Shown: positions 6,453-63,083 of the stretch, piece by piece
Layout: each line of letters starts with the position of its first letter
Position numbering within the stretch: the first letter of the stretch is position 1
Assembly (NCBI GenBank): GCA_963847185.1
Contig: CAWJYV010000001.1
Span: forward strand, 1 to 64,000
Direction: 5' to 3'
Length of the DNA stretch: 64,000 bases
Origin: an uncultured Methanosarcinaceae archaeon
Lineage (GTDB): Archaea; Halobacteriota; Methanosarcinia; Methanosarcinales; Methanosarcinaceae
Notes under the pieces: model-generated
Seen by the model: the letters and a program-made list of their open reading frames with translations, nothing else
Databases searched by the model: none
What the model was told of the DNA's origin: nothing
Position numbers and translations under genes: made by a program

Positions 6453-7648
6453 TTACTTTATTTTGGATGAAACTTTAGCTAACATAGCAGGGTCCTGTTG
6501 CAGGTATGTGAGTAAATCTGATATCAGCATTTCTTTCTCCTGTGCTGCTTCCTGTGTAACCGGCATCCCACAATCACAATACCTCATTCCCGACGGGATT
6601 GGCATACTACACCTGGCACACCTATTAATCTTGTTACCTTCCTGATCCTGAACGACTCTTATACCATAGGAGGCGAGTACGGCATTATCAATTTCTGGGT
6701 TTGACAAATGTATATACGTTTCCGTTTGGTTGCTAGACCCCGCCCAGCCAAATTGCTTCTTAAGCTGTTGTTCAGTCATTGTATTGGCGAGTCTAGTTGC
6801 CTGAGAATGGCGGAGTAAATGACAATATACATTCTTCTTAATCCCTGCTTTCTTGGCCGCCTTCTTCAACAACAGATTCATTGAAATAACCCTTAATGGC
6901 GTGTGCACACGGGGTTCGTCCTTAGCCTGCTTCTTTTTATTCTTACTATGACTGCTATCATTATACTCTCTAGCTGTAGTGAATAAGGGAGCTTGGGGTC
7001 AGTTGCATTCGGGTGATCAACAAGCCACTGCTTAAGGTACACCTGGTACTTATGCAACAATACCTGTCTCTTTCCTGTCTTCCCATTAAGTGTTATATGG
7101 AATCCGTAGGGGTGGTCTTTCACATCGCCTATTTTGCAGTTTTGAATTTCTCCAACTCTTGCTCCCAGCTCATAAATAATGGCTACCAATGCTTTATCCC
7201 GGATACCAATACAACACGCAATTATTTTCTCAACTTCTTCCTCACTCAGGATATCTTCCGACTCTAATTTTTTACCTTCAACTCTAGCAAATCCGAACTT
7301 TGCAAGCTCAATTAGCTCTTTATTATCAGTGCTTGCACCATATCCTTTTAGAAACCTTTGAAACGTAATTTTGTACTGCATCTTACTTGTAGCACTGGCA
7401 GGCTTCCCATTTTTCTTTGTCCAATCATTGATTGCATCTTGAATATCATTAACATCCTTCTTGGTCAACTTGTCCAGGTCGGTCTTAGTATGTGTCAACA
7501 GGAACCGCAAAAAATGCTCATTATTGCGAACGGTAGCTTCCTTCAAACCACTACGATTCAGATCCTTTAGATATTCAAGGACAATGCTCTGGTTCTGTTC
7601 GGAGATATTATTCTCAATACAAAAGTTAACTATATTATGCGTATCCAT
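6453..7648 (-). pseudogene. Tyrosine integrase, frameshifted copy
   Basis: ORFs 6893-7756 and 6453-6908 together match the intact copy at 61369-62565. One base is missing in the G-run near 6995 (DPQAPLF becomes DPKLPYS). Confidence 0.9.
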
Positions 7649-8157
7649 AGAAGCTTTCTCCAATTTATAATTATACAACGCATAATATATATAAGATTGG
7701 ATAATGTATATTATTACATGGTTTTTGGGAAGGAAATGATTAATATTACTAAACATTTGTAAATAAATTACTTTTAGGAGTAGAGGGTTTTGGGGGTGGT
7801 AGGCAAAATAACCTTTACAATAAAATTTAGTTCATAGAGTTTTAAGTAAGCTAGCTTCCATATGAAATTTAATAAGCGTGTGACGTCGTGCCAGTCTAAA
7901 CACTTGTAGAAGAGATTGTCCTCGGGATATGTAGAATAGACTGTCCCCCGCACCTGTTCTTAATTTATACCTGTGACTGTAGTCGGGCAGCTCGGAGACA
8001 TAATAATATAGGAAGTAAAGCAAGTCAAGTAGTACAAGATATTCTAAAATGTATGAAAAGCAGTATATTATTTCTCGACATAACATACTACTATATTCTA
8101 ATATGTGTTATACAACTAAAATTTATGTAAATGGGTTTATAGTTTAATATGTTGACA

Positions 8158-8703: not shown

Positions 8704-9174
8704 CTAAACATATTAGATATAAACCAATATACTTCGCCTCGATAATAATGGTTTGTTCGTTTCGATAAGAACAAATTATAAAATGTTTCTTTCAGGATAT
8801 GTTTAGTACTATGCCAGATTTAACGTATCCCAACCCGTTTTACGGATCTCCAATAATTTGGGAGATATAAGTGCCTTAGAAGAAGCTAAAAGCTTGGCTG
8901 CAAGGCTTAGCGTGGCTTCCAGTAATAAGTATGTAGAAGGTTCGGGAAATATTCAGGATGCGATATCCTCAATATAGTGTTTTTAGTGTCACCTCTGAAT
9001 TTTATGCGTTTAGTTTAGCCCTTCCATAAAAACAACATACAGAAGCCTAATTCATTTCTAAAAACAACTTTAGTTAAAAATTAATCAAAAACAAAAAGTA
9101 CTTTATGATGTGACATGCATCAATATTATCGACTTTTTGATTGTTACACAATCAATCTTCTAGGGAGTCTAATC

Positions 9175-10977
9175 ATGCCAGAGCATCAGCAAACTCAAAA
9201 GTCCACAGAATCACAAACTACTTTTCAAAAGCAAGTGACCCCCACAAAGCAGACCCTCATTTCAAACCCGATGACTATCATTCAGCGTGCCAGAATCAAC
9301 CCTAAATCTCTCACCCACGCGGACGTAATGCAACTACAGCGCACTATTGGGAACAGGGCAGTTGGTACGTTGCTGTCAGAAATTGGGCTTATTCCTTCAA
9401 AGGCTGAGCAGGCACCGCTTGTTCAGATGCAGACAATACCTGAGGATGTATCAATTTGTCCTTCTTGCTTGCAGAAGCAAGAAATCAAAGAAGAGAAAGA
9501 ACCGCTTCAAGGCAAAATGATACATCCTCTTCAAAGGCAAGAAATTCCTGAGGAAGAAGAGCTTCTTCAGAGAAAGAGGGAGAACCGCACAGGCATGCCT
9601 GATAATTTGAAAGCTGGCGTGGAAAACTTGTCCGGGATAAATATGAGTGATGTGAAGGTGCATTATAATTCAAATAAGCCAGCAGAAGTCGGAGCTTTGG
9701 CGTATACTCAGGGAACAGATATTCATGTAGCTCCAGGGCAGGAGAGGCATTTGCCACATGAAGCGTGGCATGTGGTGCAACAGGTACAGGGTAGGGTTAA
9801 ACCGACAATGCAGATGAAAGGGCTTGGCATTAGCGATGACCCGTCGCTGGAGCAAGAAGCCGATATGATGGGAGAAAGGGCAGCACATATGAGGCTTGGT
9901 CCTGCTCCTTCGCGAGTTACTAATGATCATAAAGGGTTGGACATGGCAACCTATGAATCAGAAGGTATTGTGCAACGTATGCACGCCGTCGGAACCGATG
10001 TAATCATGGAACCTGAACCTGTTGGAAAAACGCACTGGAAAATGGCAGACAAAGATACGAAAGGCCTCGGTGACGAAGTAGATGATATTGTTGGAGTTAC
10101 TGGGATTTTTCAGGGGCCCTTTACTAAGATTCGGGTGGACACACTGAATATGTGGCGTGCCCATGGGGTGGCTAAAAGATTTGGTGGCTCGGGAAGAGCC
10201 GACAATGTGGGATGGTGGCCAGGTGACATTGAAGAACAGTGGGGTTACGAGGAATGGAAAGTAGCCGGTGTTAAAAACGAAGACCATGGATTGAGCAAAG
10301 AATGGGCAGTTGGACAAGGTGAAACAGGGGAGTATCATGTTAACCGCACGCTTTTGGATGGAGAGACAATCTTGAGACAATACAGAAACCCGATCATCTC
10401 TGCCATTAACTGGGGATATAACAATGATAGGGAAGCATGGCGGCAAGTAATTGAAAACTGTGGAAAAATGAATAGAGAAGATATTGCAACAGATAATATG
10501 AAAGAATTGAATGCTTATAAGGCCCAAATGATGGACTCAGATATTAATGTCATTAATCAGTGGTTTGAACAATATTTCAGACCTTCTGCATTTTTGGTTA
10601 TTGGAAATATGACTCTGCGTTACACCGAGATCACTGCAGGAAAAAACCAAAGACCCGGAGTAAAAGAATGGCAACGTAAGGATACGCATATCGTAGGGGG
10701 TAGACCATGGAATGGACGCCCAAAGGAGAATCCCAGTTACCCACGAAACGTTGAATACACTGCCACTAATTCCAGTATTGCAAACTTATGCATCATTACT
10801 AATAATCAAGTCATTTGGGAAGCCCTTGTAAAATCTGAAGCCATTACGCCTTACCATGGGATACCGGCACCTAGGTTGGAAAATGTAGAACGTATAAAAC
10901 TTTGCGATAAAGAAGGAAATAATATTAATTTTTATCCCAAACGCTGTATCTCTGGATTTGGTATAGAGATTCCATAA
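9175..10977 (+). CDS. DUF4157 (eCIS-associated core) protein with a putative C-terminal nuclease/toxin region
   Basis: LQRTIGNRAV, GALAYTQGTDIH, HLPHEAWHVVQQ, LEQEAD. C-terminal RAHGVAKRFGGSGRADNV. Probable start MPEHQQ at 9175. Confidence 0.85.
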   Translation: MPEHQQTQKSTESQTTFQKQVTPTKQTLISNPMTIIQRARINPKSLTHADVMQLQRTIGNRAVGTLLSEIGLIPSKAEQAPLVQMQTIPEDVSICPSCLQKQEIKEEKEPLQGKMIHPLQRQEIPEEEELLQRKRENRTGMPDNLKAGVENLSGINMSDVKVHYNSNKPAEVGALAYTQGTDIHVAPGQERHLPHEAWHVVQQVQGRVKPTMQMKGLGISDDPSLEQEADMMGERAAHMRLGPAPSRVTNDHKGLDMATYESEGIVQRMHAVGTDVIMEPEPVGKTHWKMADKDTKGLGDEVDDIVGVTGIFQGPFTKIRVDTLNMWRAHGVAKRFGGSGRADNVGWWPGDIEEQWGYEEWKVAGVKNEDHGLSKEWAVGQGETGEYHVNRTLLDGETILRQYRNPIISAINWGYNNDREAWRQVIENCGKMNREDIATDNMKELNAYKAQMMDSDINVINQWFEQYFRPSAFLVIGNMTLRYTEITAGKNQRPGVKEWQRKDTHIVGGRPWNGRPKENPSYPRNVEYTATNSSIANLCIITNNQVIWEALVKSEAITPYHGIPAPRLENVERIKLCDKEGNNINFYPKRCISGFGIEIP

Positions 10978-16932: not shown

Positions 16933-17069
16933 CAAGCAACGAGATACGTTCGCGCCAAATCCTTCTTGCCTTTTTCAACTCTCCCAGAGACTCCACACTT
17001 AATTAAAAGCAGCTTCCTTACCTCTTTTATCATGAAAGTAGTGCAGGTGTTACAGATTATTAAAAGGCG

Positions 17070-17640
17070 CCAGCCTTCCACAGATCCCAGAAACCTCTCC
17101 GATAACTCAGATCTGAGTCATCGAGGAAACGTAGTCGTAAGGCTATAAAAAAGTGATGATATAGAGTATCCATTTTACTAGTTTTAATTATGTTGTGGAA
17201 CCTGTAGGGATATATTTAGTCCATTCTTACCCAAGCGATAGCCGTGGCCTTTGTACGTGGCTTCTAGGTATATGTGCGTGGAGATGAAGGAATAAACGTA
17301 CTGCGTCAGCCTCCCACAAATATCCCAGAATCAGAGCCGCTACACGGGATTACTTTTAATTATGCTTGTGAAACCTTCTAGGATATTTGGTCCATCCTTA
17401 TCCTAAACGAGGGTCTTAGCCTTTGTACGTGGCTTCTAAGTATATGTGCGTGGAAATGAGGGATGGACTTACCGCGAGCCTTCCATATATCCCAGAAGCT
17501 TGCAGAGCGCTTTATTGTCATTAAATCCCTTAATTACGGGGATTCCAGATTTTGGGAGATATATAAGTGCCTAAGAAAAGAATTTACGCTTGGTTGGGAG
17601 GTTTAGCGTGGCTTCTGGGATATGTATGTGGAAGGCTCAT
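17070..17640 (+). repeat. Cluster of three fold-back repeat units (types A, B, C)
   Basis: Each unit starts AGCCTTCCA..ATCCCAGAA and ends GTGGCTTCTRGG..ATGT..GTGGA. Unit A carries the palindrome at 17099-17124. Confidence 0.85.
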
Positions 17641-18792: not shown

Positions 18793-21700
18793 TTAATTTA
18801 TAGGGATATAAACTGGACAACATTTTTCTTTGACTTCAGCTGGGGTGAGATTACCAAGATCTTTTGCCATTTCCTCATACATTAAAGGCGAATATTTCTT
18901 TATTATTAAAGCGTTACTCTCTAGAAGTGATTTTAGCCTTTCCCCCTCATATTCTTTTATTTTTTGAAGGATTCCAATGAATGTTCGAGATTCCTCATTA
19001 ATTTTATTCATTTCTTTTTGTATAATAGCTGTAAGAGTATTCTTCGTTTCCAAATCATCATCAATAAGTTCTTCAATATGTGATATTCTTTTTTCAATTT
19101 TATTTTTCTTTCTCTCAATTATTTCTTGCTCCTCTATTATAGGCACCCATCGAGTACTCATCGCCATTTGTCCCTGAGAGATATCTCTTGCAGAATTAAA
19201 TTCTGTATTTATTGAAGCAAGTAATATAAATTGTTCACAAATTTCATCTATTGGTCCTTTTATAGCTTTTTTGACCTGCTCCTCATGAAAATGTTTATTG
19301 AGAGTCATGAGCAGGCCTGAAGAGCCACCATTTATCTCGCCTTCAAAAGAAAAAATACCATTTGCCATAATATATGTTTTATTCCCTGGTGATTGAGGAT
19401 TGTCAAGGTTTTCTATAGCAACCTTATAAAAACGGTTTGTGTTAGGATTAGTTTGCGGAATCAGTAATATATCACATTTATCTAAGAAATGGATTCTTAA
19501 TTTATCGTCCAGATATTCGAAACAGATTAGAATTCCTAAACTCAATCTGTCAGTAATTTTGAATATATGTTTCAGTTCTCCTTGATTCATACCTTCCATA
19601 TTAAGGAATTCACGCTCTACTCCTGCAGGCAACAGTTTTTCACTATGTACAATTTTAGATGAAGGTATCACCACAGGACATATATTCTTCCGCAGATCCT
19701 CACTTCCAATATCTGAAGCAAATAGATCTTTGTATTCATGAAGGTTTGCTTCTGTCACATAATGAGAGCCTGCAACCACCACTATCCTATTTTCATTGGC
19801 ATATTTTTGAATTTTAGGCAGAAATTCAAAAGGGATTGAGAATTCGGGAAATACTATTATCTTTGCCTTCTCTTTTACTGCATCAAGAATGTAGCAGATC
19901 TTCTTCCAGTAATTTTCTTTTGCTTTTCCAAGATTATTCACTTCTTCTTGTTCTTGGGATTCAAATTCGTTCTTATATGACTTGTCAAATGCCAGTTTAA
20001 CAACTTTTTTGTCCTTGATTATATCATATTTTAACTGAATAACTGCAATACTCAAAATATCATTTTTGATTACGATATTGTTCCTACAATCATGTTCCAA
20101 AATGCAGAATTTCAAATTAGGCTCTAAATATTCATTGTATTCTATATGTCTTGTAACTGACTTTTCATACATTGTAGTTTTAAAAGTGATTTTCCCCTCT
20201 ATCTTCGTCGGGGTGTGATGAATATAAAGTTCTTTCTTCCCGCGAAGGGGCTCCTCAAATATCTTCACCCCTCCAGCTTCTATCGTTAAAATGCCTTTTA
20301 TTTTCTCTGGATCTGCAAATTTGATCCTGAGTTTCCAACTACTATACTCAATATCGGGACTGAAAGGTTCTTTCAAGTACTCAGTCAGTTTCTGTGTAAG
20401 TTTTTTCCCCGCATGATCAAAAATCGTCCTGACTGCAAAAGAATCAATTTTCAAAATCTGGTCATTTAGTTTATTTCTAATTTCATCTTCATCTTTGTTT
20501 TGCTTATTCTCCAAAAGTGAAATAATCTCCTCGAATGCTAAAAGTACACTCAGATTTGCAGATGTTGATAAATCCTTACGAAGTTCATCTACAATTTTTT
20601 TGATAGATTCTATCTTTAAATCACTTTCATTTTCCAGACTCTCAATACTTTCCACTTCAAGAATTCCTGCATAAATGCAATAACAAACAGTTGCTTTTTC
20701 ATAGACTATTTTTGCCATTTCAAACTCTTTCTTTGCTTCTTTAATCAGCTCTATATTGGGGTTTTCAAACATAAGTGATTCGCTGATTAGTTTTCTTCCA
20801 CGAAGATAACATAATGCGGAAGCAAGCAATTCTTTATTTTTTTCTTCTTTTTCAATCTTTTCCAATTTTTCTACTGCTAAAATTGATTTTTCGTATTCTT
20901 GTATGCGTTTATTTGGATCTTTCTCTCCTACTATATTTTTCATCAAAAAATCCAAGTATGCCCTTAGCCCAGCCTCTAAAGCCAGATTTCCTTCGTGATT
21001 AAGATTGTGTTTTTTAAAGAAATCTCGGTTTTGCTTGCAGACATTAATCCCTTCTCTTAAGAAATTCATCTCATTATGTATATTTGTTTCAATCTCGGCC
21101 AGTTCCATTAGTGATCTTATTATTCCAATAGTAGCCTGAGATTTCTTGCCTGCAATCAAACGTTGCAAGGACTCATTATAGATTTCTAACGTCTTTTCAT
21201 CACAAATTTTTAATACTTCTTCATATCTTTCTTTAGCCTCTTTGCTTTTTTTCATATCGAAAAGCAAGGCTCCTAGGTTATTGAGAGTCTCTCCAACATT
21301 TAGCCGATATAATATATTTTTGTAATCTGTTTCTAGGAGACTTTCCCTAATTTGAAATGACTTCTCATACATCTCCTTTGATTTCTGAAATAGCTTCATA
21401 TTATAAAGTAAAGTTCCAAGATCATTGAGCGTTTCCGCAACATTAGATTGATACGCTAGATTTTCAGGGTCGGATTTTAGCAATGATGTTCTAATTTCCA
21501 ATGCCTGTTCATGCCTTTTTTTTGCTTCTTTGTTTATACCCTGGTTCGTAAGTAAAGTTCCGAGACCATTAAGGGTTTCTGCAAAATCTGATTGATAGGC
21601 TATGTTTTCAGAGTCTATTTCTTGAAGTTTCTCATAAATTTCTAGTGCTTTCTCATACTTTTGCTGCGCCTCTTCCATATGGCCCATATTGTTAAGCAAA

Positions 21701-22608
21701 TCTCCTAAATTATTGAGTGTCATTGCAACGTCTGATTGATATAATATATTTTTTGAGTCTTTTACTCGAAGCCTTTCATATATTTCAAGCGCTTTCTCAT
21801 ACTTTTCTTTCGCCTCTTCAAAAAGTCCTGTATCAGAAAGTAAGGTTCCAAGATTGTTAAGTGTCATTGCCACATCTGACTGGTAGATTATATTTTCTAA
21901 GTCTTTTACTCGAAGCCCTTCATAAATTCCAAGTGCTTTTTCATATTTTTCTTTTGCTTCTTCTATGCGTCCCATATCAGAAAGTAAGGTTCCAAGATTG
22001 TTGAGTGTGGCTCCAACGCTTAATAGGTAAATCATATTTTTTGAGTCTTTTATTCGAAGATTTTCATAAATTTCAAGTGCTCTTTCATACTTTTCTTTTG
22101 TCTCTTCTATACGCCCCATTTCAGAAAGTAACGTTCCAAGATTGTTGAGTGCAGTTGCAATGTACGATTGACAAAATTCTTCTTCAGGATATGATTTCAT
22201 CATCTTCTGGCAACTATCATGAATAAATTCATTACAAGTTTTAGATAGATGAAAACGTCCTCTATTATAGAGACTTTCTCCAAGGCTAACAATATTGTTA
22301 ATGTTCATGTTAAAAGCAGGGAAGAAAAATTCATTTTGAGGATCTTTTTCTAGATGGTCAATGCAGATTTCTAGAGATAGAGAATAGTATTCAAATGCAT
22401 CCCCAAATTTGCACATATTCTGCACCAACATACCCTTTGTGCTCATTATTTGAACAAGGATGCTTTTGTCCTCAGACTTTTGTGCATATTTTTCTGCCTT
22501 TTGGATTTTTTCAAGTGCTTTTTCAAATTGTTGTTTTTCTATAAGAGTCAGGGTCTCTTGAAAGTATTTTTTTGCTTTTTCTTTCAATTTTTCAGGGGGC
22601 TCGGGCAT
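18793..22608 (-). CDS. TPR-repeat protein fused to a carbon-nitrogen hydrolase (nitrilase-like) domain
   Basis: About 51-aa TLNNLGTLL repeats. C-terminal IIVFPEFSIP, HSEKL and ILICFEY give a Glu-Lys-Cys triad pattern. Confidence 0.85.
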   Translation of the reverse strand: MPEPPEKLKEKAKKYFQETLTLIEKQQFEKALEKIQKAEKYAQKSEDKSILVQIMSTKGMLVQNMCKFGDAFEYYSLSLEICIDHLEKDPQNEFFFPAFNMNINNIVSLGESLYNRGRFHLSKTCNEFIHDSCQKMMKSYPEEEFCQSYIATALNNLGTLLSEMGRIEETKEKYERALEIYENLRIKDSKNMIYLLSVGATLNNLGTLLSDMGRIEEAKEKYEKALGIYEGLRVKDLENIIYQSDVAMTLNNLGTLLSDTGLFEEAKEKYEKALEIYERLRVKDSKNILYQSDVAMTLNNLGDLLNNMGHMEEAQQKYEKALEIYEKLQEIDSENIAYQSDFAETLNGLGTLLTNQGINKEAKKRHEQALEIRTSLLKSDPENLAYQSNVAETLNDLGTLLYNMKLFQKSKEMYEKSFQIRESLLETDYKNILYRLNVGETLNNLGALLFDMKKSKEAKERYEEVLKICDEKTLEIYNESLQRLIAGKKSQATIGIIRSLMELAEIETNIHNEMNFLREGINVCKQNRDFFKKHNLNHEGNLALEAGLRAYLDFLMKNIVGEKDPNKRIQEYEKSILAVEKLEKIEKEEKNKELLASALCYLRGRKLISESLMFENPNIELIKEAKKEFEMAKIVYEKATVCYCIYAGILEVESIESLENESDLKIESIKKIVDELRKDLSTSANLSVLLAFEEIISLLENKQNKDEDEIRNKLNDQILKIDSFAVRTIFDHAGKKLTQKLTEYLKEPFSPDIEYSSWKLRIKFADPEKIKGILTIEAGGVKIFEEPLRGKKELYIHHTPTKIEGKITFKTTMYEKSVTRHIEYNEYLEPNLKFCILEHDCRNNIVIKNDILSIAVIQLKYDIIKDKKVVKLAFDKSYKNEFESQEQEEVNNLGKAKENYWKKICYILDAVKEKAKIIVFPEFSIPFEFLPKIQKYANENRIVVVAGSHYVTEANLHEYKDLFASDIGSEDLRKNICPVVIPSSKIVHSEKLLPAGVEREFLNMEGMNQGELKHIFKITDRLSLGILICFEYLDDKLRIHFLDKCDILLIPQTNPNTNRFYKVAIENLDNPQSPGNKTYIMANGIFSFEGEINGGSSGLLMTLNKHFHEEQVKKAIKGPIDEICEQFILLASINTEFNSARDISQGQMAMSTRWVPIIEEQEIIERKKNKIEKRISHIEELIDDDLETKNTLTAIIQKEMNKINEESRTFIGILQKIKEYEGERLKSLLESNALIIKKYSPLMYEEMAKDLGNLTPAEVKEKCCPVYIPIN

Positions 22609-25611: not shown

Positions 25612-25764
25612 TATGTATAATTAGAGAATGCTATCCATATATAATTTTGGAAATAGAAAATTCATGGCTATAGATTAAGACTTAAAATGTCACTCTTCCA
25701 TTGATTTTATATTGTAGGACTTAACGGTTGAACTGAGAAATCAATTAAAGTTGCGCTGGCGCAC

Positions 25765-26450
25765 TCCACATCTCCCAGAAACCTCTCCGCTAACTCAAAT
25801 CTGGGATATCGAGGAAACATAGTTGGATGGCTATAAAGAAAGTGATGACAAAGAGTATTCATTTTACTCGTTTTAATTGCGTTGTGGAGCTGTCCGGGAT
25901 ATATTGGTCCATCTAGCTACGAGCGATAGCCTTGGCCTTTGTACGTGGCTTCTAGGTATATGTGCTTAAGGATAGATGTGCCAGCCAGCCTTCCACATAT
26001 CCCCGAATCAGAGCCGCTACACGGGATTACTCTTTTTTCACTTCTTATGTAGTCTGTAGGGATATATTGGTCCATCCGGTTACGAGCGATAGCCCTGGCC
26101 TTTGTACATGGCTTCTAGGTATATGTGCGTGGTTAGTATGTTTCTTTAGGATATCCCAGAAACCTCTCCGATAACTCAGATCTGAGTCATCGAGGAAACA
26201 GAGTCGGAAAGCTATAAAAAAGTGATGATATAGAGTAGTCATTTTTCCATTTCACATGTAGTGTCAGGGATATGTTTAGTCCATCTGGCTACGAGCGATG
26301 GCCCTGGCCTTTTAGATTAGCTTCTAAGTATATGTGCGTGGAGGATTCGGGATAGATGCACTACACCACCTTCATCACATCCCATAAATCTCTCCGATAA
26401 CTCAGATCTGAGTTATCGGTAAACGTTATCATTTGGCTACAAAAAAGTGC
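25765..26450 (+). repeat. Cluster of fold-back repeat units (A, B, A, partial A)
   Basis: Same arms as 17070-17640. Palindrome copies at 25787 (degenerate), 26168 and 26394 (perfect 26 bp). Confidence 0.85.
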
Positions 26451-26554
26451 TGAATTCCTCTTAGTTCCTGAGTAATTTGAGGAATAATCTATTAGGCAGG
26501 TAAATAAAAAGTCCTGAGCCTACATTTCTCGTGAGTTCAGGACTTCCATTTAGA

Positions 26555-37935: not shown

Positions 37936-38037
37936 TTAGCATCCTCCACAGCCGTCGCAGCCGCCAAAGCCGCCGCAGCCGCCAAATCCACAGCCGCCGA
38001 ATCTACCGAATCCACCAAATCCACCAAATCCGAACAT
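37936..38037 (-). CDS. 33-aa Gly/Cys/Phe peptide MFGFGGFGGFGRFGGCGFGGCGGFGGCDGCGGC
   Basis: Translated by hand. First 12 aa and upstream region are shared with 35405-35665. Confidence 0.7.
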   Translation of the reverse strand: MFGFGGFGGFGRFGGCGFGGCGGFGGCDGCGGC

Positions 38038-38689
38038 TTATTTTACCCCCATGTTTAGTATATTATTTTAGATTTTTTATTGTGCTTTTTCTTATTCTTA
38101 TTTTCTCTTATTTTCTACTCTTTTTTCTACTCTTTTTGCGTAAGGAGAAGACAAAACTTTAAGATTAGAGTATGAAGTGGGCATACGGCCCTCTAATCAA
38201 ATTTTTTATCTATTCCTCAAATATATAATTACTTCTGGAAATCGTATTTGGAAAATATTCTATCACTTCCTTCCGTCTGGAGAGAACAGATTCAAGTTTA
38301 ACTGCCAGAAGTACAAGTTAATATATAATTCTCGAATATATAAAAATAATAGAATATTTTTTACTTAATATTAATAGTCTTTTAAAAACTGAGCACATCT
38401 GACGTTAAAAAAGCGAAGTTACTTTTATACTAATTGGCAGATTTAAATCCTTTAAGATATCCGCTAAAATGAGAAGTTTAGTCCATAATTCAAACTTTTA
38501 CACAAAAAAAAGACCTCAACAATATAAATAAGGCTTTTACGAGACGAATAAATCCCTTTTTCGAATTAAAGCCAATTTAAGGGGTTAAAATACACATATT
38601 TAGTAAAATAAGTTGTATTACTTCTTCATCACTCTTTCGAGATCTGAACTCCATGACTTTATCATAAAGGAAGTAAAGATTACGGGTTT

Positions 38690-38800
38690 AAAGTATTCAT
38701 TTTACTCGTTTTAATTGCGTCGTCGAGCCGCTCGGGATATATTTTTGTCTATTTGACTATAAGCGATAGCTTTGGACATTGTACATAGCTTCTCAGCTAG
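38690..38800 (+). repeat. Partial type A repeat (right half)
   Basis: AGTATTCATTTTACTCGTTTTAATTGCG...GGGATATA...AAGCGATAGC...TTGTACATAGCTTCTC. Confidence 0.7.
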
Positions 38801-38936
38801 AGTACGGACCAAGATTATCATATAAAAATAAACATTTTAAAAAGATTTATAATGTATAAATAACTTTAAAGAGTAAATATAAAAGCATTTTTAAGCTGAT
38901 AAACTATCCATAAAAATAGAAATATCGAGGGTTATC

Positions 38937-39335
38937 ATGAAAGACTTAGAAGTGAAAATGTTGGACGAAGAAGACCATATTTTTATTGAAACGTTAAGGA
39001 ATCTAGGAATGTCAAGAAATGTCGCTACAACCATGGCATATCTTATGAATGTAGACGAATCTTCAGCCCGGGAAATTGAAATAAGTACTGGATTAAGGCA
39101 ACCCGAAGTAAGTCTTGCAATAAAACTAATGCACAACCAATCCTGGATCAGTGTGCGCTCGGAAAAAAATCATGGAAAAGGACGGCCGACAAAGATTTAT
39201 TCTCTTGCAGCTCCGGTTGACGAGGTCATAAGTTATTACGAAGACAAGATTTACAAAGAATCTCAGGCAACCGTCTCGGTGATCAAGAAGCTTAAAATGA
39301 TGAGTAAAAGTATGCTTTCTACTCCTTCAAAGTGA
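38937..39335 (+). CDS. Archaeal HTH transcriptional regulator (ArsR/TrmB-like)
   Basis: SAREIEISTGLRQPEVSLA...GKGRPTKIYSL. Confidence 0.85.
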   Translation: MKDLEVKMLDEEDHIFIETLRNLGMSRNVATTMAYLMNVDESSAREIEISTGLRQPEVSLAIKLMHNQSWISVRSEKNHGKGRPTKIYSLAAPVDEVISYYEDKIYKESQATVSVIKKLKMMSKSMLSTPSK

Positions 39336-39454
39336 AGGATTTCAAATGGGGTTAGCTCCATAATGGCTGACAATCCTTTTTGGGGATTCACTATTATGGA
39401 AAATTAAATTTCTCCGGAATTCTCATTTAACTTTTCTATCTGCTCATCCTTAAT

Positions 39455-39832
39455 GTGGAGCCTTTTGGGATATATCTTGGTCTATTTGGCTACAAGCGAT
39501 AACTGTGGCCTTTGTAAGTGGCTTTTAGATATATGTGTGTCTTCAGGATAGATATGCTGCAATATATCCCAGAAACCTCTCCGATAACTCAGATCTGAGT
39601 CATCGGTAAACATAGTCGGAAGGCTTTAAAGAAATGCTGACATAGAGTATTCATTTTACTCGTTTCAATTGCTTTGTGGAATCTTCAGGGATATATTGGT
39701 CCATCTGGATACGAGCGGTATCCTTGGCCATTGTACGTGGCTTCTAGGCGTATGTGCGTGGAGGCTTCGCAAGATACTCGACAGTGCCAGCCTTCCATAT
39801 ATCCCAGAAACCTCTCCGATAACTCAGATCTG
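39455..39832 (+). repeat. Cluster of fold-back repeat units (right half, A, partial A)
   Basis: Palindrome copies at 39581-39606 and 39816-39832; junction hairpin at about 39739-39812. Confidence 0.85.
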
Positions 39833-40094
39833 GAACCCCAAAGAGAACCTGATCGACTACAGGTCTTAGCACAGGAACACTTGGAAATCTAAAGTATATC
39901 GGGAAAAAAGATAAGGCGAAGAGGCTGAAAAATTGGGGTTGACACGGACAGAGTACAGTGATTATTGGTTGGACTAGAGAAGGAGAAGAAACAGAAAGTA
40001 ATAAATACAAAATGTAAAGCCACCATTGAAGCAAAGAAGAGGGGAGCTATAATTTGACATTTCTAGTTATGAGGTAAAACGTTGCTAGTTACAC

Positions 40095-45829: not shown

Positions 45830-45909
45830 TACGAGCGCTAGCGCCTATTACAGTGGCTTCTAGATAGGCCTACAAGATGAAGTTGGGAAAAAAAGCAAAA
45901 AAATTATTC
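45830..45909 (+). repeat. ~80-bp direct repeat, copy 2
   Basis: Matches 41498-41577 and contains the GTGGCTTCTAG core. Confidence 0.8.
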
Positions 45910-46314
45910 TTCAGATTCTGACTCAGCTAATTGGTATTTTTGTACTTCTATGATGGTCTTTAACCAGTCGTTTAAAAAAGCATTTAATTCCTCCTTTAGC
46001 TTTGGTCGATACTTACCCGGTTCCGGGTAGACCTCTTGGAATATCCCCAAATAGTCGTTTTGAAAAGTCATTGCCTCGGCTTCTTTATGGTCCGGGTGAA
46101 TCCATACTTGCATATCCGGGTCTGCCATGACGTCGCCGTTTTGCTTCCCGTTGTGAGCTAGGCTAATAGTGTTATTTAATAAATTGTCCACATGTAGGTC
46201 CATAAGCCCAGGACTTTGAAATCTCATGTAAGAAGCTTGCATTACCCCGTTTTCATCAATAATCCCAAGGGTTTGTAACCTTGTAAAAATATTCTTGTAT
46301 ATTTTTCGTTGCAT
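45904..46314 (-). CDS. DUF1249-like protein
   Basis: ISLAH..KQNGDVMADPDMQV...AEAMTFQND...LNAFLNDWL. Confidence 0.7.
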   Translation of the reverse strand: MQRKIYKNIFTRLQTLGIIDENGVMQASYMRFQSPGLMDLHVDNLLNNTISLAHNGKQNGDVMADPDMQVWIHPDHKEAEAMTFQNDYLGIFQEVYPEPGKYRPKLKEELNAFLNDWLKTIIEVQKYQLAESESEE

Positions 46315-52473: not shown

Positions 52474-52818
52474 ATGCTGAACTCAATAGTAATAGAACTC
52501 GATGATGAATACATCGACAACGACCTCATGTATTTGAGCGAAGAGGGACTTTTTGGGCTTACTCAGTTAGGTACTCTCTATGGCATAGCCCTGTTATTAG
52601 CAATGAAGAAGATGGACGAGGGCTACACGCCTTTAGAACCAGTTATATATCACAATTATCCCGAGGACGCACTCATTTCACCAGCGAATGGTGGCATGAC
52701 ACTAACGCGTGTTGGTATCGACTGGACCGTACAATACATGGCAGATCACAAATTTAATCAGTTCGTTTATGATGTAGCTCGAAAAATCTATGAGAAGAAC
52801 ATAAAAGAAAATATCTAA
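52474..52818 (+). CDS. Hypothetical protein
   Basis: 114-aa ORF with plausible composition; no motif recognised. Confidence 0.55.
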   Translation: MLNSIVIELDDEYIDNDLMYLSEEGLFGLTQLGTLYGIALLLAMKKMDEGYTPLEPVIYHNYPEDALISPANGGMTLTRVGIDWTVQYMADHKFNQFVYDVARKIYEKNIKENI

Positions 52819-54445: not shown

Positions 54446-55733
54446 GTATTTTTTTTGCTCTTTTTCTTGCTTGAATGATTCATTGCTATTTATTGATGCA
54501 CGGTCACCAACCTTTTTACTATTTTTGGGATATTATTAGATTTTAAAAGTTCATCAGGATCTCCTCTACTAATTCTTTTACTTTTTTTGTTTCTCCTGTC
54601 TTGGGATCAGTTATTTCTTTTTTCATTGCATCATTACATGAATCAGTAGCCGTAATCATAGAGTTCTTTTGTAAACTTCTTATTTTCAAATTATTATCAA
54701 CATTAAGTGCGGAAGAATCACAATTCTCCGCATTCGGTTTCTTAACTAAAGAAGAAATATTCGATTTATTCTTTCCATAATATTTGTCCCATGTAGTTTT
54801 AAGGTCGGTTTCGTGTACATTATCTAAAAATTCCATCCAACGAAAGATCCACTCTGAACTATTTAATCGGCTTACATATGTTCTGAACACTTCTTCACAG
54901 TTAATTAAGTTATTAATAAACTCAGCATAAAGAGTCATCCAGTACAAATTATGTAAGGAAATAAGTATTCCTGAAGTAGTTTTCATATCCCATAAGTATT
55001 CAGGTTTCTCTAACTGTTTACAAATTGGGCAAATACATTCAAATGAACGAGAGTCCTTATTCTTCTGGCTTCCATTCATCTTCATACCAGGACCATAAAA
55101 ATCAAGGTGAAACATAAACTTACGGAGTGTTCTTCCAAAAGATGCAGATGACGAGTCAAAGTATATTTGAGTGTTAGTATATCTATTTGCATATGCAATT
55201 AATGGTAGTAGATATGGAGAGGATAGACCTAATAAATGGAAAGGTTTACTCACACTATATTCTATCGCGAAACCAAGTCTTAATGGCATTAAATATTTCA
55301 TCTCTGAGCTGGTAGACAGAGAAAATCCATCGTATTCATAATTGTGATTATCTGTTGTTACTTCATACCAGCGTTCCATATCCTCATAACAGTCACCATG
55401 AATACAGTTAAACAACTTAAAGTCTGAATTATAAGCATCATCTATATGTTTATCTTTATACTCAAACATTGATTGAGCATTTTTCGCAGACTCTTTTAGA
55501 CAATCTTCAAAAATCTTCTTATCTTTAAATTGACTCCATTTTCTCGGTGTTGGAATATCAAGAGTCATTCCAACATCACAAACATCCATTTGCCATTGAA
55601 TTACTTTTTCCCACGTAAGTTTTTTATGAATATCTGGATCTTTCAATTCACCCATTTTAGATTTCAAGATTTGATAACCACCGGAGTCACCAAAAAACAA
55701 AACATCGTTTCTAATTTCATTTCTGCCTTTTAC

Positions 55734-57376
55734 CTTGACTTTGTCACATTTCCTTTTCACGTCTACCGTGAAGTATAATTTTATTCCTATATATTTGAGA
55801 TCGTGAAACAAATAACAAGTGACTTTATCAAGTCAAACACTATCTCTGTAGAAAAATACATTTCTGAAACGAATCTTGAATTCTATTTTCAAACTAAAAC
55901 TCGTTGTGTCGCTTCAACGTGTATTGATTACCTTAATGGTTTGATGCTTCTTCCATATCGGAAAAATTTGAGAAAAATGGCAATTTATTGTTGTAAATGC
56001 TCTAACAACGAATCACTCAGCCATTTCCTCTCAACTTCTCCTTGGCTTTCTGCAGATCTCCTCAAATCTGTTCGAACAAAAGCCATTCAAACTATAGGCA
56101 AAAATGGTGTTCTTATACTTGACGAATCAAGCATAAAAAAATCTGGAAATAGTTCTGTTGGAGTTTCTCATCAGTATTGTGGCAACCTTGGAAAAAAGGA
56201 CAATTGTCAGGTTGGTGTATTCCTTGCTTATTTTAAAAAGAAGAGAAGAATGTTGATTGATGAGAGATTATATCTCCCACAAAAATGGATTGATGATAAG
56301 GTACGTTGTTTAAAGGCTAAAGTTCCTCTTGAAGAGATTAAATTCCGAACCAAGCATGAGCTTGGTCTTGAAATGATTGATAATGCAATAGAAGAAGGTA
56401 TTCCTTTTTCCTATGTTACAATGGATGGATTCTACGGTGAAAATCCGGAGTTGTTGACAGAACTTGAAATTAGAGGTTTAACTTTTGTTGCAGACATAGC
56501 TGTCGATACTCTTGTTTATATTGAGGAACCAGTTGCTGAGATACCTGCGAAAAAGGGAATAAGAGGAAGAAAACCCACTATCCCCAAGGTTTTGAATACA
56601 TTATCAACAAGAGTAGATTCTCTTTCCAATTCAGTTGAGGGATGGGAACTTATCAATGTTAGAAAAACGGAAAGAGGGTATAAAAAAGTCTATTTTAAGG
56701 CTATAAAAGTTTGGAGACGTCAGAATAAATTACCTTGTGAGAAGCCGGTATGGCTTCTTATAAGTAAAGATTCAGAATCAAATGAAATTAAATATTCACT
56801 ATGTAACGCCTCTGAAGATACATCATTCGATAAACTTGCAAAAATGCAGAGTTCAAGGTATTGGATTGAGAGAGCATTTCAAGATGCGAAAGGAGACTGT
56901 GGAATGGCAGAATACATGGTGAGAAATTGGAATGCGTGGCACCATCATATGGCATTAGTAATGCTTGCAATGCTTATTTTACTCTCCTATCAGAAAAAAT
57001 TCAACAAAATGTATAAGATGTCAATTCCTGGAGTTTTATGGATACTGAAGTACCATAATCCATTGAAAAGAATCGATGCTCGGGAAATTGCAGGAATCTT
57101 AAATCAAGATAATGAGTTGAGAAGGAAAGCAAGGGTTAGCAGATTAAGAAGTTCATAATAATTTTCTGATTGGAATAAAATGGATTCGTGTTCCGACGAC
57201 TGGTAAGTATACAATTTTGACAGGAAAAATTTATGACAGTAGAAATAATGGAGATAGTGATCAAGAAAAAAATAGAAGAAACAAGAATAGGAAAGGGAAA
57301 AGATTAAAGATACAGCAAATTTGAATGGAAATAAGTTGTGATGATTGTAAAAATGAGTTAATTTGACAAAGTCAAG
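55734..57376 (+). mobile_element. IS701-family insertion sequence
   Basis: TIRs CTTGACTTTGTCACATT and AATTTGACAAAGTCAAG; 4-bp target duplication TTAC. Confidence 0.9.
55803..57158 (+). CDS. IS701-family transposase
   Basis: ILDESSIKKSG..SVGV.HQYCGNLGKKDNCQVGV, DGFYG, RYWIERAFQDAK..CGM. Confidence 0.95.
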   Translation: MKQITSDFIKSNTISVEKYISETNLEFYFQTKTRCVASTCIDYLNGLMLLPYRKNLRKMAIYCCKCSNNESLSHFLSTSPWLSADLLKSVRTKAIQTIGKNGVLILDESSIKKSGNSSVGVSHQYCGNLGKKDNCQVGVFLAYFKKKRRMLIDERLYLPQKWIDDKVRCLKAKVPLEEIKFRTKHELGLEMIDNAIEEGIPFSYVTMDGFYGENPELLTELEIRGLTFVADIAVDTLVYIEEPVAEIPAKKGIRGRKPTIPKVLNTLSTRVDSLSNSVEGWELINVRKTERGYKKVYFKAIKVWRRQNKLPCEKPVWLLISKDSESNEIKYSLCNASEDTSFDKLAKMQSSRYWIERAFQDAKGDCGMAEYMVRNWNAWHHHMALVMLAMLILLSYQKKFNKMYKMSIPGVLWILKYHNPLKRIDAREIAGILNQDNELRRKARVSRLRSS

Positions 57377-57708
57377 TTACATTATCTATTCCATAGTAAG
57401 CAGATACTAGCATTGCATTATAAGAAAAAAATGGATTATCCGACCACCAACTACACTGTTTATCTTTGCCTAGAATAGAGACACTAGATGGATAAAAGTA
57501 ATCAATATCTTCAGGTGTAATCGTAACCGGAATATAAATTAATTTATTTTCTTTAAATGTGTTTACCATGTTGTAACCCCTTAATTTCCTGATCTTTAAC
57601 GGACTTTGCGAAATTTAAAAAAAGAAATGAAGAGATAGATTTTTGTTAAAAATAAAAAATTTAAAGTTTTGGGTTGTATTTTTTGGTTTTTAAAACCTTT
57701 TCAGGATA

Positions 57709-59118
57709 TTAGATAGCACTAGAAGCTTTGCCATCTTTTTTATCTTCAATATCTTCCACAAATGTTGGTTTTCCCCAGTTCTCGAGTTCAGTTTCATGGA
57801 AGGGATCTACATAACTTCCACCAGGGAACATTTTCATTGCAATCTGGTAAACTGGCATATACTTGCTTTTATCCTTTTCACCTTTTTTAAATATAATATC
57901 AGGTTGATAATCTTCAACTGGTTCTAAATTACCTTTAAGTCCAAACAATACAAACTCGACAACACCGTTGAAATATACACCAGGTTTTCTTTCAGCATCA
58001 TATATCCCGATAGATTTCAGACTGAAACCCCAACTTCGCATGAGACCCCATCTATCTTCGAGATTTTGAGTAGTCGCCCATAAAAAAAGTGCAGAATCTT
58101 TTGAAATTTTGGTTTCTGTTTTCTTAGCTTCGTCGGCATTTTTTGGATCCGCAACTATAACATTATACACCCCTGGTGGTGGTACAGCTATCATTTTAGG
58201 TGGCTTATTAGTATGTTCTTTCTTGTACTTCTCGAAATCTTTATCGGCTTTGTTTGGTGTGACAGCGCCTGTTATAGCTTTATCTACAAGCTCTTTTGCT
58301 TTCGCAGCAACGTCCTTAATTTCTTGTGGAGCATCTTCTTTAGCGTTAGGGTCTTTTGCAGCTTCCATTAACTTGAGTAACTTATATCCTGCATCAATTG
58401 AGAGGCGATCAGCCCTCATTTCATCCATAACATATTTGGCATCTTTATCTTTGTTATTATACGACTTCCCTATATATTTCAGATTTGAAAGGGTGCCTTC
58501 ACTGAGACCTATTACTTTAGCTTGCTTTTCGGTAGTGCTACCATATTCTTCGTCCCGATAACTCAGATCTGAGTTAACGGAATTTTGTTTAAGTTTACTT
58601 TGTTTTCGCTCATCGGCGCGTTTAGTGTAAATTTCTTCTAAAAGTTCAGTTTCTTTAAAAATCTGTAATGGATTTTTCTTTCGATGCTTATTGAATTCAA
58701 TTATAGCTTCTTCTTCATCTACATCTAAAGAAAACGGCTTCATGAAGCACAGAGCTTCAATTTCTTTGTATTCTTTATTTTCTTTTTTCTTATACTCTTC
58801 TTCTTTTTGTAATTCTTTTAATGCTCTCCATCTGCGATGACCAGATATAATCAGATACTCCTGGTCAATGACAATAGGTTCAAGCTGGCCAAGGTCTCTA
58901 ATACTCTCTTTTAAAGCCTCATCAATTGTTTCCTTCCCATATATCTCAATATTTTTTGGATGTTCTTTAAGCTTTTTAGGATTGATAGGAAAAATTCCGC
59001 TAATTACTTCTTTTTTCTTTGGTTGTTCTTGTTTTTCATCTTGCAGTACTTGTTCATCTTGCAGTACTTGTTCATTATCATGAACATGTTTTTGAGTATC
59101 TTCTTTATTTACTTCCAT
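57709..59118 (-). CDS. ParB N-terminal domain, HTH and degenerate MT-A70 methyltransferase-like fusion
   Basis: LKESIRDLGQLEPI...ISGHRRWRA; KQAKVIGLSEGTL; YNVIVADPKN...LFLWATT...WGF...EFVLFGLKG. Confidence 0.85.
   Translation of the reverse strand: MEVNKEDTQKHVHDNEQVLQDEQVLQDEKQEQPKKKEVISGIFPINPKKLKEHPKNIEIYGKETIDEALKESIRDLGQLEPIVIDQEYLIISGHRRWRALKELQKEEEYKKKENKEYKEIEALCFMKPFSLDVDEEEAIIEFNKHRKKNPLQIFKETELLEEIYTKRADERKQSKLKQNSVNSDLSYRDEEYGSTTEKQAKVIGLSEGTLSNLKYIGKSYNNKDKDAKYVMDEMRADRLSIDAGYKLLKLMEAAKDPNAKEDAPQEIKDVAAKAKELVDKAITGAVTPNKADKDFEKYKKEHTNKPPKMIAVPPPGVYNVIVADPKNADEAKKTETKISKDSALFLWATTQNLEDRWGLMRSWGFSLKSIGIYDAERKPGVYFNGVVEFVLFGLKGNLEPVEDYQPDIIFKKGEKDKSKYMPVYQIAMKMFPGGSYVDPFHETELENWGKPTFVEDIEDKKDGKASSAI
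58555..58580. promoter_or_regulatory. Intragenic near-perfect 26-bp palindrome (parS-like candidate)
   Basis: CCGATAACTCAGATCTGAGTTAACGG matches the perfect palindrome at 26394-26419 at 25 of 26 positions. Confidence 0.6.
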
Positions 59119-61368: not shown

Positions 61369-62565
61369 TTACTTTATTTTGGATGAAACTTTAGCCAGTA
61401 AGGTTGGATCTTGTTGTAAATATGTGAGTAAATCTGATATTAGCATTTCCTTATCCTGTGCTGCTTCCTGTGTGACCGGCATCCCACAATCACAATATCT
61501 CATTCCTGACGGGATCGGCATACTGCACCTGGCACATCTATTAATCTTGTTTCCTTCCTTATCCTGAACAACTCTTATCCCGTAAGATGCAAGTACAGCA
61601 TTATCAATTTCGGGATTCGACAAATGTATATACGTTTCCGTTTGGCTGCTAGATCCAGCCCATCCAAATTGCTTCTTAAGCTGTTGTTCAGTCATTGTAT
61701 TGGCGAGTCTAGTTGCCTGAGAATGGCGGAGTAAATGACAATATACGTTCTTTTTAATCCCAGCTTTCTTGGCTGCCTTTTTTAACAACAGATTCATTGA
61801 TATTGTTCTTAGTGGCGTGTGCACACGCGGTTCGTCCTTAGCTTGTTTCTGTTTATTCTTACTATAACTTCTATTAGTATACTCTCTAGCTGTAGTGAAT
61901 AATGGAGCTTGGGGATCATTTGCATTTGGATGATCAACAAGCCACTGCTTAAGATACACCTGGTACTTATGCAACAACACCTGTCTCTTCCCAGTTTTAC
62001 CATTAAGTGTTATATGGAACCCATAGGGATGATCTTTAACATCGCCTATTTTACAGTTTTGGATTTCCCCAACTCTTGCTCCTAACTCATAAATTATAGC
62101 TACCAATGCTTTATCCCGGATGCCAATACAACATGCAATTATTTTCTCAACTTCTTCCTCACTAAGGATATCTTCCGACTCTAATTTTTTACCTTCTACT
62201 CTAGCAAACCCGAACTTTGCAAGCTCAATTAGCTCTTTATTATCAGTGCTTGCACCATATCCTTTCAGGAACCTTTGAAACGTAATTTTGTACTGCATCT
62301 TACTTGTCGGGCTGGCAGGATTCCCATTTTTCTTTGTCCAATCATTGATTGCGTCTTGGATATCATTAACATCCTTCTTGGTCAACTTGTCCAGGTCGGT
62401 CTTAGTATGTGTCAACAGGAACCGCAAAAAATGCTCATTGTTTCTAATGGTAGCTTCCTTCAAACCACTACGATTCAGGTCCTTTAGATACTCAAGAACA
62501 ATGCTCTGGTTATGTTCGGAAATATTATTCTCAATACAAAAGTTAACTATATTATGCGTATCCAT
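61369..62565 (-). CDS. Tyrosine recombinase/integrase with a C-terminal zinc ribbon (intact)
   Basis: GARVGEI (R), GKTG (K), HLLRH (HxxR), FGW (W), ETYIH (Y); CARC...CDCG. Probable start MDTHN at 62565. Confidence 0.95.
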   Translation of the reverse strand: MDTHNIVNFCIENNISEHNQSIVLEYLKDLNRSGLKEATIRNNEHFLRFLLTHTKTDLDKLTKKDVNDIQDAINDWTKKNGNPASPTSKMQYKITFQRFLKGYGASTDNKELIELAKFGFARVEGKKLESEDILSEEEVEKIIACCIGIRDKALVAIIYELGARVGEIQNCKIGDVKDHPYGFHITLNGKTGKRQVLLHKYQVYLKQWLVDHPNANDPQAPLFTTAREYTNRSYSKNKQKQAKDEPRVHTPLRTISMNLLLKKAAKKAGIKKNVYCHLLRHSQATRLANTMTEQQLKKQFGWAGSSSQTETYIHLSNPEIDNAVLASYGIRVVQDKEGNKINRCARCSMPIPSGMRYCDCGMPVTQEAAQDKEMLISDLLTYLQQDPTLLAKVSSKIK

Positions 62566-63083
62566 AGAAACTTTCTCCAATTTATAATTATACAACGCAT
62601 AATATATATAAGATTGGATAATGTATATTATTAACTGGTTTTTGGGAAGGAAATGATTAATATTACTAAACATTTGTAAATAAATTACTTTTAGGAGTAG
62701 AAGGTTTTGGGGGTGGTAGGCAAAATAACCTTTACAATAAAATTTAGTTTATAGAGTTTTAAGTAAGCTAGCTTCCATATGAAATTTAATAAGCGTGTGA
62801 CGTGGTGCCAGTCTAAACACTTGTAGAAGAGATTGTCCGCGGGATATGTAGAAGACTGTCCCCGCACCTGTTATTAATTTATACCCCTGTGACTGTAGTC
62901 GGGCAGCTCGGAAATAATAATAATAAGAAGGGAAAATATAAGCAAACTGTTCGTATAAAATATATACTACAAAAGTTTCAAAAAAGGAATGATGTTTATT
63001 ATCGGATGGATAATAGGTCTATACCACAAAACATTATTGAGCACCGGAATTTGTAATAAGTTATATACTACAAAATGTTGATA

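Follow-up and report, generated by a model that had tools for sequence, protein, structure and literature searches.

Does a ParB-like protein encoded on an archaeal mobile island read a palindrome that lies within its own gene and recurs in non-coding repeats elsewhere on the same contig? The question is raised by a 64,000-nucleotide (nt) stretch of DNA, hereafter the window, from an uncultured Methanosarcinaceae archaeon (assembly GCA_963847185.1, contig CAWJYV010000001.1, positions 1 to 64,000 of the forward strand). Its ParB-like gene (57709-59118, minus strand) is intact and encodes a 469-aa protein in which a ParB_N domain, a helix-turn-helix (HTH, approximately residues 195-218), and an MT-A70-like part devoid of the DPPW motif follow one another. 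An earlier inspection of the letters alone (the sequence-only reading) had taken the palindrome for the parS-like site of this protein. The most plausible explanation considered here, which is put forward tentatively, is that the palindrome is the recognition site of a candidate reader, this orphan ParB-fold protein, which would act in marking or regulation rather than in partition and would find most of its sites in repeats of the host.

Palindrome copies in the window and in the ParB-like gene

A perfect palindrome of 26 nt, composed of a 10-nt arm, AGATCT, and a second 10-nt arm, occupies positions 26394-26419. With up to three mismatches, it occurs at five sites in the window, namely 17099 and 26168 (two mismatches each), 26394 (none), 39581 and 58555 (one each); not a single match was obtained in 100 dinucleotide-preserving shuffles (expected number, 0). 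Two weaker copies are located at 25787 (21/26 identical) and 39816 (18/26). Every non-coding copy forms the core of a repeat unit of about 100-130 nt, the P module, and these copies are situated 19-41 kb away from the ParB-like gene. The central 16-mer of the palindrome is absent from the literature searched by sequence.

The remaining copy (58555-58580, minus strand) is a solo palindrome inside the ParB-like gene, where it is translated in frame and, together with one extra shared base, makes up the nine codons of the peptide SVNSDLSYR. It lies between the GHRRWRA box (...ISGHRRWRAL...) and the GLSEGTLSNLKYIGK helix-turn-helix (...VIGLSEGTLSNLKYIGK...), and in the coding direction it is identical at all 26 positions to five P copies found in other archaeal loci (two in L001 and one each in L002, L003, and L009). 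With a profile of 20 P modules, the gene is matched at 58554-58582 and nowhere else, so the flanks of the copy are unrelated to the repeats; the block common to gene and repeats comprises 27 nt, or nine codons, with the frame kept. The presence of the palindrome in the gene hints at its recognition by the encoded protein.

Two physical links thus connect the palindrome with ParB-like genes, the first of them being this solo copy. When AGATCT-centred sites were collected from the window and eight archaeal loci described below (n = 53) and counted as symmetric if at least 7/10 arm positions were complementary, 19 of the 20 symmetric sites fell inside P modules, and the remaining one was the copy in the ParB-like gene. 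The second link is a relic of another ParB-like HTH-coding segment (39856-39906, plus strand), which is out of frame and has neither a start codon nor an open reading frame (ORF). Its translation, TTGLSTGTLGNLKYIGK, agrees with VIGLSEGTLSNLKYIGK of the gene at 13/17 residues (E 0.007), and the nucleotide match (34/45, score 46) was reached by none of 300 shuffles in two separate tests. The relic, which is the only other ParB-like sequence in the window, starts 14 nt past the hybrid palindrome of the P copy at 39780-39855 and shows the same order of palindrome and HTH as the gene. Since a lone solo copy occurs in the ParB-HTH gene and a second ParB-like relic abuts another copy, a functional tie of ParB-like genes to the palindrome is hard to dismiss.

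Several possibilities concerning the origin of these links were examined and set aside. An in-frame insertion of 27 nt into the gene is unsupported by an alignment with two cyanobacterial plasmid ParB_N proteins (thin, approximately 24-28% identity), which shows no added length at the palindrome and argues against simple insertion; with homologues this distant, the test is a weak one. A gene-derived origin of the P right flank found no support either, as none of eight P copies scored above shuffles against the gene. A repeat/relic junction at the palindrome centre was rejected (the P profile reaches 39855, about 24 nt further on), and so was a candidate relic of the ParB N-terminus at 38219-38323, where AT-rich non-coding DNA gave a match with E 3.4.

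The sequence-only reading had listed the perfect palindrome at 26394-26419 with variants at 17099, 26168, and 39581 and a degenerate one at 25787, and had described a near-exact copy in the linker between the ParB domain and the HTH as the only sequence shared between gene and repeats. The renewed search recovered all of these sites, and the gene copy (one mismatch), its peptide, and its unrelated flanks are as described. The copy at 39816 had been called truncated; it instead possesses a different right arm, and the repeat runs on to 39855.

A modular repeat family in Methanosarcinales chromosomes

The P module alternates with an S module of about 80-90 nt to give tandem units of approximately 215-230 nt, which form three arrays in the window. 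According to the profile, P modules are present on the plus strand at 17065-17198 (palindrome 17099-17124), 25759-25887 (degenerate palindrome 25787-25812), 26142-26264 (palindrome 26168-26193), 26356-26473 (the perfect palindrome), 39553-39680 (palindrome 39581-39606), and 39780-39855 (hybrid palindrome 39816-39841). S modules were located on the plus strand at 38725-38797, 39457-39550, and 39679-39759 (within 38725-39759), and further ones at 17203-17280, 17374-17451, 25886-25975, 26058-26129, and 26262-26339. In some units, a variant designated Q (…atcccagaatcagagccgctacacggga…) takes the place of the palindrome-bearing P part (17310-17340 and 25996-26030).

To place the family in other genomes, an 18-mer from the palindrome was scanned against 185,579 species-representative genomes, which yielded 13 loci. 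Five of them are single bacterial matches that have otherwise nothing in common with the window (about 17 chance matches are expected by our own arithmetic). The matches in the eight archaeal loci all fall within repeats of the P/S family, which are 70-90% identical to the window. Four of these loci make up two contiguous 16-kb stretches (832-848 kb, with L001 and L002, and 1016-1032 kb, with L007 and L010) of the 3.69-Mb chromosome OW818660.1, where seven exact matches occur, and the other four are contigs of metagenome-assembled genomes (MAGs) from three assemblies. In total, the window and the eight loci (five assemblies) hold 21 P and 36 S copies. The orientation of the copies is uniform within a region (plus in the window and at 832-848 kb, minus at 1016-1032 kb). 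It was also observed that this orientation is independent of that of the neighbouring genes, both around the window arrays at 17, 25-26, and 38-39 kb and in the two chromosomal stretches.

The genes adjoining the repeats in the eight loci (Pfam, 44 ORFs) encode catalase, an ammonium transporter with P-II, phosphoglycerate kinase, AMMECR1, UDG, histidine kinases, and subtilase, and some of them are orthologues of repeat-adjacent genes of the window, i.e., the MarR-like gene, a histidine kinase, and the ORF at 52474-52818. No match to the P/S unit was found in a plasmid collection or a phage collection. Because P/S copies occur in the chromosomes of several species, beside housekeeping genes and without a ParB in these loci, they are not cargo of the ParB-bearing island; they make up a repeat family that resides in the chromosomes of the hosts. 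The sequence-only reading had seen the copies as dispersed across the element, had expected the motif to be enriched there, and had regarded their surroundings as a cargo region. None of this can be maintained, as the copies are cores of a repeat family that is also carried by four other Methanosarcinales assemblies without a nearby ParB. The same reading had named a genome-wide spread as part of an unrelated MITE (miniature inverted-repeat transposable element) as an outcome that would speak against it, and the picture obtained, with copies beside housekeeping genes and no ParB in eight loci, comes close to that outcome.

P/S copies resemble MITEs in being small, multi-copy, non-coding, and mostly intergenic, as they are found between genes. 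Neither terminal inverted repeats nor target duplications were seen by eye for P/S in the arrays and in the solo copy of L010, where boundaries were not compared with an empty site, and no cognate transposase was found. The possibility of integron attC sites was set aside with no dedicated test; the units are sequence-conserved and often in tandem, with no cassette between them.

Two side observations concern genes beside the repeats. A MarR-like winged-helix gene lies between P/S modules both in the window (38937-39335, with modules from 38725 to 39759) and in the MAG contig L006 (1019-1941); the two proteins share 72% aa identity, a 744-nt stretch is 80% identical in nucleotides, and the palindrome upstream of the window gene is degenerate (around 38641). 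In L010, a fragment resembling the N-terminus of an IS4/IS5-family transposase (…ISDEFWNKIKPLFP…; 5700-5850, minus strand; family named by eye) is located directly upstream of the solo P module.

Symmetry and conservation of the palindrome

The palindromes of 20 P modules were aligned and counted as 11 pairs. Little or no variation is seen in the central CAGATCTG and in the outer C-G pairs, paired cells amount to 87%, and 5/11 pairs are changed on both sides. Two arm types share the same core and are distinguished by four consecutive compensatory differences; the second type is present in L002, L006, and L011. The copy at 39816-39841 is a hybrid: its left arm is of type 1, its core is the shared one, and its right arm agrees with type-2 arms at 7/10 positions. 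The 14 nt that follow it match the type-2 right flank of L011 at 12/14 positions.

The covariation score and the paired fraction of the alignment were reached by none of 500 shuffles, and slid controls were 22-39% paired; two type-counting measures were unexceptional (204/500 and 445/500). As the copies are related by descent, these figures speak for a constraint on symmetry and not for a number of independent events. The symmetry of the palindrome is under constraint, and arm symmetry is kept by compensatory change. When folded as single-stranded DNA, the sites give energies of -7.4 to -10.8 kcal/mol (z-scores of -2.8 to -5.5). Conservation covers the entire P module, and the palindrome is no island of conservation within the repeats.

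The ParB-like protein and its TGT-like neighbour

The N-terminal part of the protein reaches 28.0 bits with Pfam ParB_N (cut-off, 26.3), and its GHRRWRA sequence, a GxxRxxA-type box, aligns with GeRRwRA of Noc 7nfu; the Noc structures 7nfu and 7ng0 were both matched. PHROG 4715 (ParB-like partition protein) covers residues 27-337 (2.5e-19), and with the Noc, RepB, and PRTRC models the protein remains far below all cut-offs. The MT-A70-like C-terminal part matches PADLOC MTase_II (type II methyltransferase, 1.9e-10), the PDB entry 7f4r (MT-a70 family protein, E 0.003), and an annotated MT-A70 family methyltransferase on a Sinorhizobium plasmid (E 1e-5); Pfam MT-A70 (PF05063) gave no match to the protein even at E ≤ 5. 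About 13 residues after the position of the DPPW motif are also missing (thin four-sequence alignment). The nearest ESM Atlas clusters (MT-A70/ParB N-terminal domain-containing protein; score 0.96) are mostly viral and 97-100% MT-A70. An AlphaFold2 single-sequence model was unusable (mean predicted local distance difference test, 35; predicted template modelling score, 0.17). By these matches, the protein looks like the virus-type ParB-MT-A70 fusions of DNA modification. No ParA-type family was found among the 37 window ORFs of at least 90 aa.

The next gene downstream, on the same strand and 138 nt away, is TGT-like (DpdA-like). Its product scores 45.9 bits with tgt_general (cut-off, 47.6) and matches the archaeosine TGT 1iq8 (E 0.007). 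The C-terminal 396 codons (54543-55733, minus strand) have been severed from the N-terminal 63 codons (57381-57569, minus strand) by a DDE_5 (IS701-type) insertion sequence (IS) at 55734-57376 (plus strand), which has 20-nt inverted ends (55731-55750 and 57360-57379) and is flanked by a duplication of its target, TTAC. As the reading frames to either side of the IS agree, it seems to have inserted recently. In OW818660.1 (L001, 6586-6833), the left end of the IS recurs with 90% identity. With regard to phages, no ParB was seen next to TGT-like homologues in the two loci inspected of three matches.

The view of the gene as ParB-like with a GxxRxxA box, followed by an HTH and an MT-A70-like part and lacking a recognisable ParA in the window, is thus borne out by the domain searches. 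A role in segregation, which had also been suggested, is unlikely, given the resemblance of the protein to virus-type ParB-MT-A70 proteins of DNA modification and the adjoining TGT-like gene. As a whole, the sequence-only interpretation keeps its ParB-like gene, the HTH/MT-A70-like architecture, and the missing ParA, and it is strengthened by the symmetry constraint and the two links to ParB-like genes; element cargo has to be given up, and segregation is unlikely.

A candidate reader of the palindrome

With regard to binding, nucleotide dependence, and output, we infer the following scheme. The reader would be the ParB_N-HTH-MT-A70-like protein whose gene carries the palindrome copy. As in the orphan ParB-fold proteins KorB, Noc, and VirB, recognition of the symmetric site would fall to an HTH dimer, and the GxxRxxA domain at the N-terminus would be the part that binds a nucleotide and closes around the DNA. 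The output would be DNA marking or local regulation, not ParA-driven partition, which is made more likely by the MT-A70-like domain and by the TGT-like gene directly downstream. The copy in the gene itself may serve as an autoregulatory or loading site, and the island-encoded protein would exploit the P-module sites that are resident in the host chromosome.

A number of observations weigh against this proposal. The island with the ParB-like gene holds a single palindrome site, and no palindrome half-sites were found elsewhere in the window. The eight archaeal loci of the 13 belong to Methanosarcinales, in four assemblies besides that of the window; none of them contains a ParB homologue at E ≤ 1e-5 (at E ≤ 20, only the palindrome-encoded peptide is matched), and P modules adjoin housekeeping genes there (catalase, Amt/P-II, PGK, UDG, and histidine kinase). 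The occurrence of both arm types in the same loci (L002, L006, and L011) is awkward for a single reader, and mean column identity is little higher in the palindrome (0.89) than in the 25 nt to its left (0.87) or right (0.82). As for the protein, models of the ParB family score low (TIGR00180 gives 29.2 bits and has a cut-off of 58.45), the DPPW motif is not kept (AVPP-PGVY faces ADPPWQF of the Sinorhizobium protein in the thin four-sequence alignment), and the IS splits the TGT-like partner gene (54543-57569).

In a more far-reaching version, which is rather unlikely, the island protein would load at the palindrome and, together with the DpdA-like transglycosylase, would mark DNA or silence neighbouring DNA, or it would tether the element to the chromosome, and two paralogous readers would exist for the two arm types. 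If true, the archaeal ParB-MT-A70 family would for the first time have a cognate site and a function.

Alternative explanations

The strongest competitor, somewhat doubtful in our judgement, assigns the palindrome to a MITE/REP-like family of host repeats (REP, repetitive extragenic palindromic) as an intrinsic hairpin or recognition element, which would be read by a transposase, a recombinase, or a host factor. The island would have landed in a repeat-rich region, the gene copy and the relic beside 39816 would be by-products of recombination between repeats and genes, and the ParB-like protein would be uninvolved. Conservation of the entire P module, the 21 P and 36 S copies, their common orientation within each region, and their position beside housekeeping genes without ParB all fit this idea, as do the compensatory arm changes and the energies of the DNA hairpins. 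The 27-nt shared block, being nine codons long, would stay in frame, and small repeats within genes are known in enterobacteria, according to the available part of the source (PMC2759123). However, terminal inverted repeats, target duplications, and a cognate transposase were not found for P/S, and, the gene aside, none of 19 palindromes is solo outside a P module. Moreover, random landing in the sole ParB-HTH gene (1.4 of 64 kb) and beside a ParB-like relic would require two unlikely coincidences, and no length has been added at the site relative to the two homologues (about 27% identity).

According to a second alternative, which is quite improbable, the 10-6-10 palindrome serves a site-specific (tyrosine) recombinase as its core site, with bound arms and crossover in AGATCT, and the hybrid at 39816 is a product of exchange between type 1 and type 2. 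This would account for an invariant CAGATCTG between covarying arms, for the mixed arms and type-2 flank of the hybrid, and for the co-orientation of the repeats. The window also contains an intact tyrosine recombinase gene (XerA/integrase-like; 61369-62673, minus strand) in the ParB-bearing island, besides a split recombinase frame at 6453-7756. However, the reciprocal product was not found, and the hybrid could equally have arisen by recombination within eight shared bases or by plain divergence. No curated cut-off is reached by the recombinase at 61369-62673 (86 bits with the XerA model, which requires 220), no recombinase is tied to the site, and no direct repeats were found to bound the island in the window, which ends at 64 kb.

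That the palindrome signals processing or termination as an RNA stem-loop, both in transcripts of the repeats and in the mRNA of the ParB-like gene, is most improbable: an 11-bp stem is kept by compensatory changes and a TATA-like A/T run 15-20 nt downstream on the plus strand is a T-run on the minus strand, but no Rfam family reached the gathering threshold in the window, the neighbouring S module, rejected as a structured RNA, has no supported consensus structure (-0.71 kcal/mol, five weak pairs), and a perfect DNA palindrome is the same on both strands, so that symmetry alone is no pointer to RNA.

Other features of the window

Several further genes were noted. The tyrosine recombinase frame at 6453-7756 (minus strand) is split into two overlapping ORFs, which correspond to the N- and C-terminal halves of Phage_integrase, and is probably a frameshifted pseudogene. 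A 1271-aa protein with N-terminal TPR repeats (18793-22608, minus strand) adjoins the repeat array designated A; its C-terminal part matches PADLOC RT_UG5-nitrilase (6.4e-18), and the gene is possibly a defence-associated one of the reverse-transcriptase type. The repeat-rich region also contains mobile-element-type or unknown-function genes for a 620-aa protein with an eCIS core domain (9115-10977, plus strand) and for a DUF6908/DUF1249 protein (45904-46314, minus strand). A small ORF (37936-38037, minus strand) in a locally GC-rich stretch encodes a 33-aa peptide rich in Gly, Phe, and Cys (MFGFGGFGGFGRFGGCGFGGCGGFGGCDGCGGC). No tRNAs were found in the window.

Comparison with known systems

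In chromosomal ParB/Spo0J systems, the parS site can lie inside the gene of the protein itself, and the palindrome embedded in a ParB-type coding sequence is reminiscent of this arrangement. However, the present case differs in that ParA is missing, TIGR00180 is far below its cut-off, the gene belongs to an archaeal mobile island, and the site is common to a repeat family. Palindromic repeats inside genes are also known from the palindromic elements of Rickettsia.

The published systems that follow are compared as far as the available parts of the cited sources describe them. MITEs, REP/BIME sequences (BIME, bacterial interspersed mosaic element), and other small palindromic repeats share with the P/S family that they are short, multi-copy, and mostly intergenic, contain a stem-forming palindrome, are clustered, and occasionally lie in frame within a gene (PMC3184786, PMC2759123). 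In contrast to them, P/S has no terminal inverted repeats or target duplications that could be found, only the 26-27-nt core occurs in the gene, and the modular units (P and S) are arranged in tandem with a common orientation. Whether or not the ParB-like protein reads it, this is a new modular repeat family of Methanosarcinales whose symmetry-constrained palindrome is also found within coding sequence.

Fusions of a ParB-CTPase fold with MT-A70 are reported to be enriched in archaea and uncharacterised, and phage ParB-methyltransferase fusions have been reported as well (bioRxiv 10.1101/2025.10.10.680097, PMC12704722). The protein described here shares the domain architecture of these fusions. 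The available part of the survey names no DNA site and reports no function for these fusions, and it treats MT-A70 as RNA-related (bioRxiv 10.1101/2025.10.10.680097). On the other hand, the present protein has an HTH between the two domains and does not keep DPPW. If the palindrome is the site of such proteins, the family could be tested directly, through binding assays, methylome sequencing, and 7-deazaguanine analysis, and it would offer a case in which repeats of the host are read by a protein of a mobile element.

The closest parallels in the proposed mode of action are KorB of plasmid RK2, Noc, and VirB, which combine ParB_N with a GxxRxxA-type box and an HTH, have no ParA nearby, and use a symmetric DNA site present in several copies distant from the gene (PMC11790492, PMC10770331). 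KorB in particular, a ParB-CTPase, acts from dispersed operators to silence genes (PMC11790492). Unlike those operators of an element's own genes, the sites described here are cores of a multi-species host repeat family; the candidate site measures 26 bp, and an MT-A70-like domain replaces the usual C-terminal dimerisation domain.

In 7-deazaguanine DNA modification, DpdB is a ParB-fold ATPase needed by the TGT-family enzyme DpdA, with a modification site nested in a 12-bp palindrome (PMC10164549). The island resembles this system in the juxtaposition of a ParB-fold gene and a TGT-family gene, whereas a DGQQR motif and, at the C-terminus, an SspE-like domain are found in DpdB in place of GHRRWRA, HTH, and MT-A70 (PMC10164549). 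Membership in the Dpd system was considered and rejected, as the ParB-like protein matched no PADLOC family but MTase_II and the TGT-like protein matched none. A phage ParB has also been reported to activate a thymine dioxygenase (5mYOX) (PMC13229309). Together, the precedents of KorB, DpdB, and the ParB acting with 5mYOX document, as far as the available accounts go, that ParB-fold proteins can work on dispersed sites without ParA or can assist DNA-modifying enzymes.

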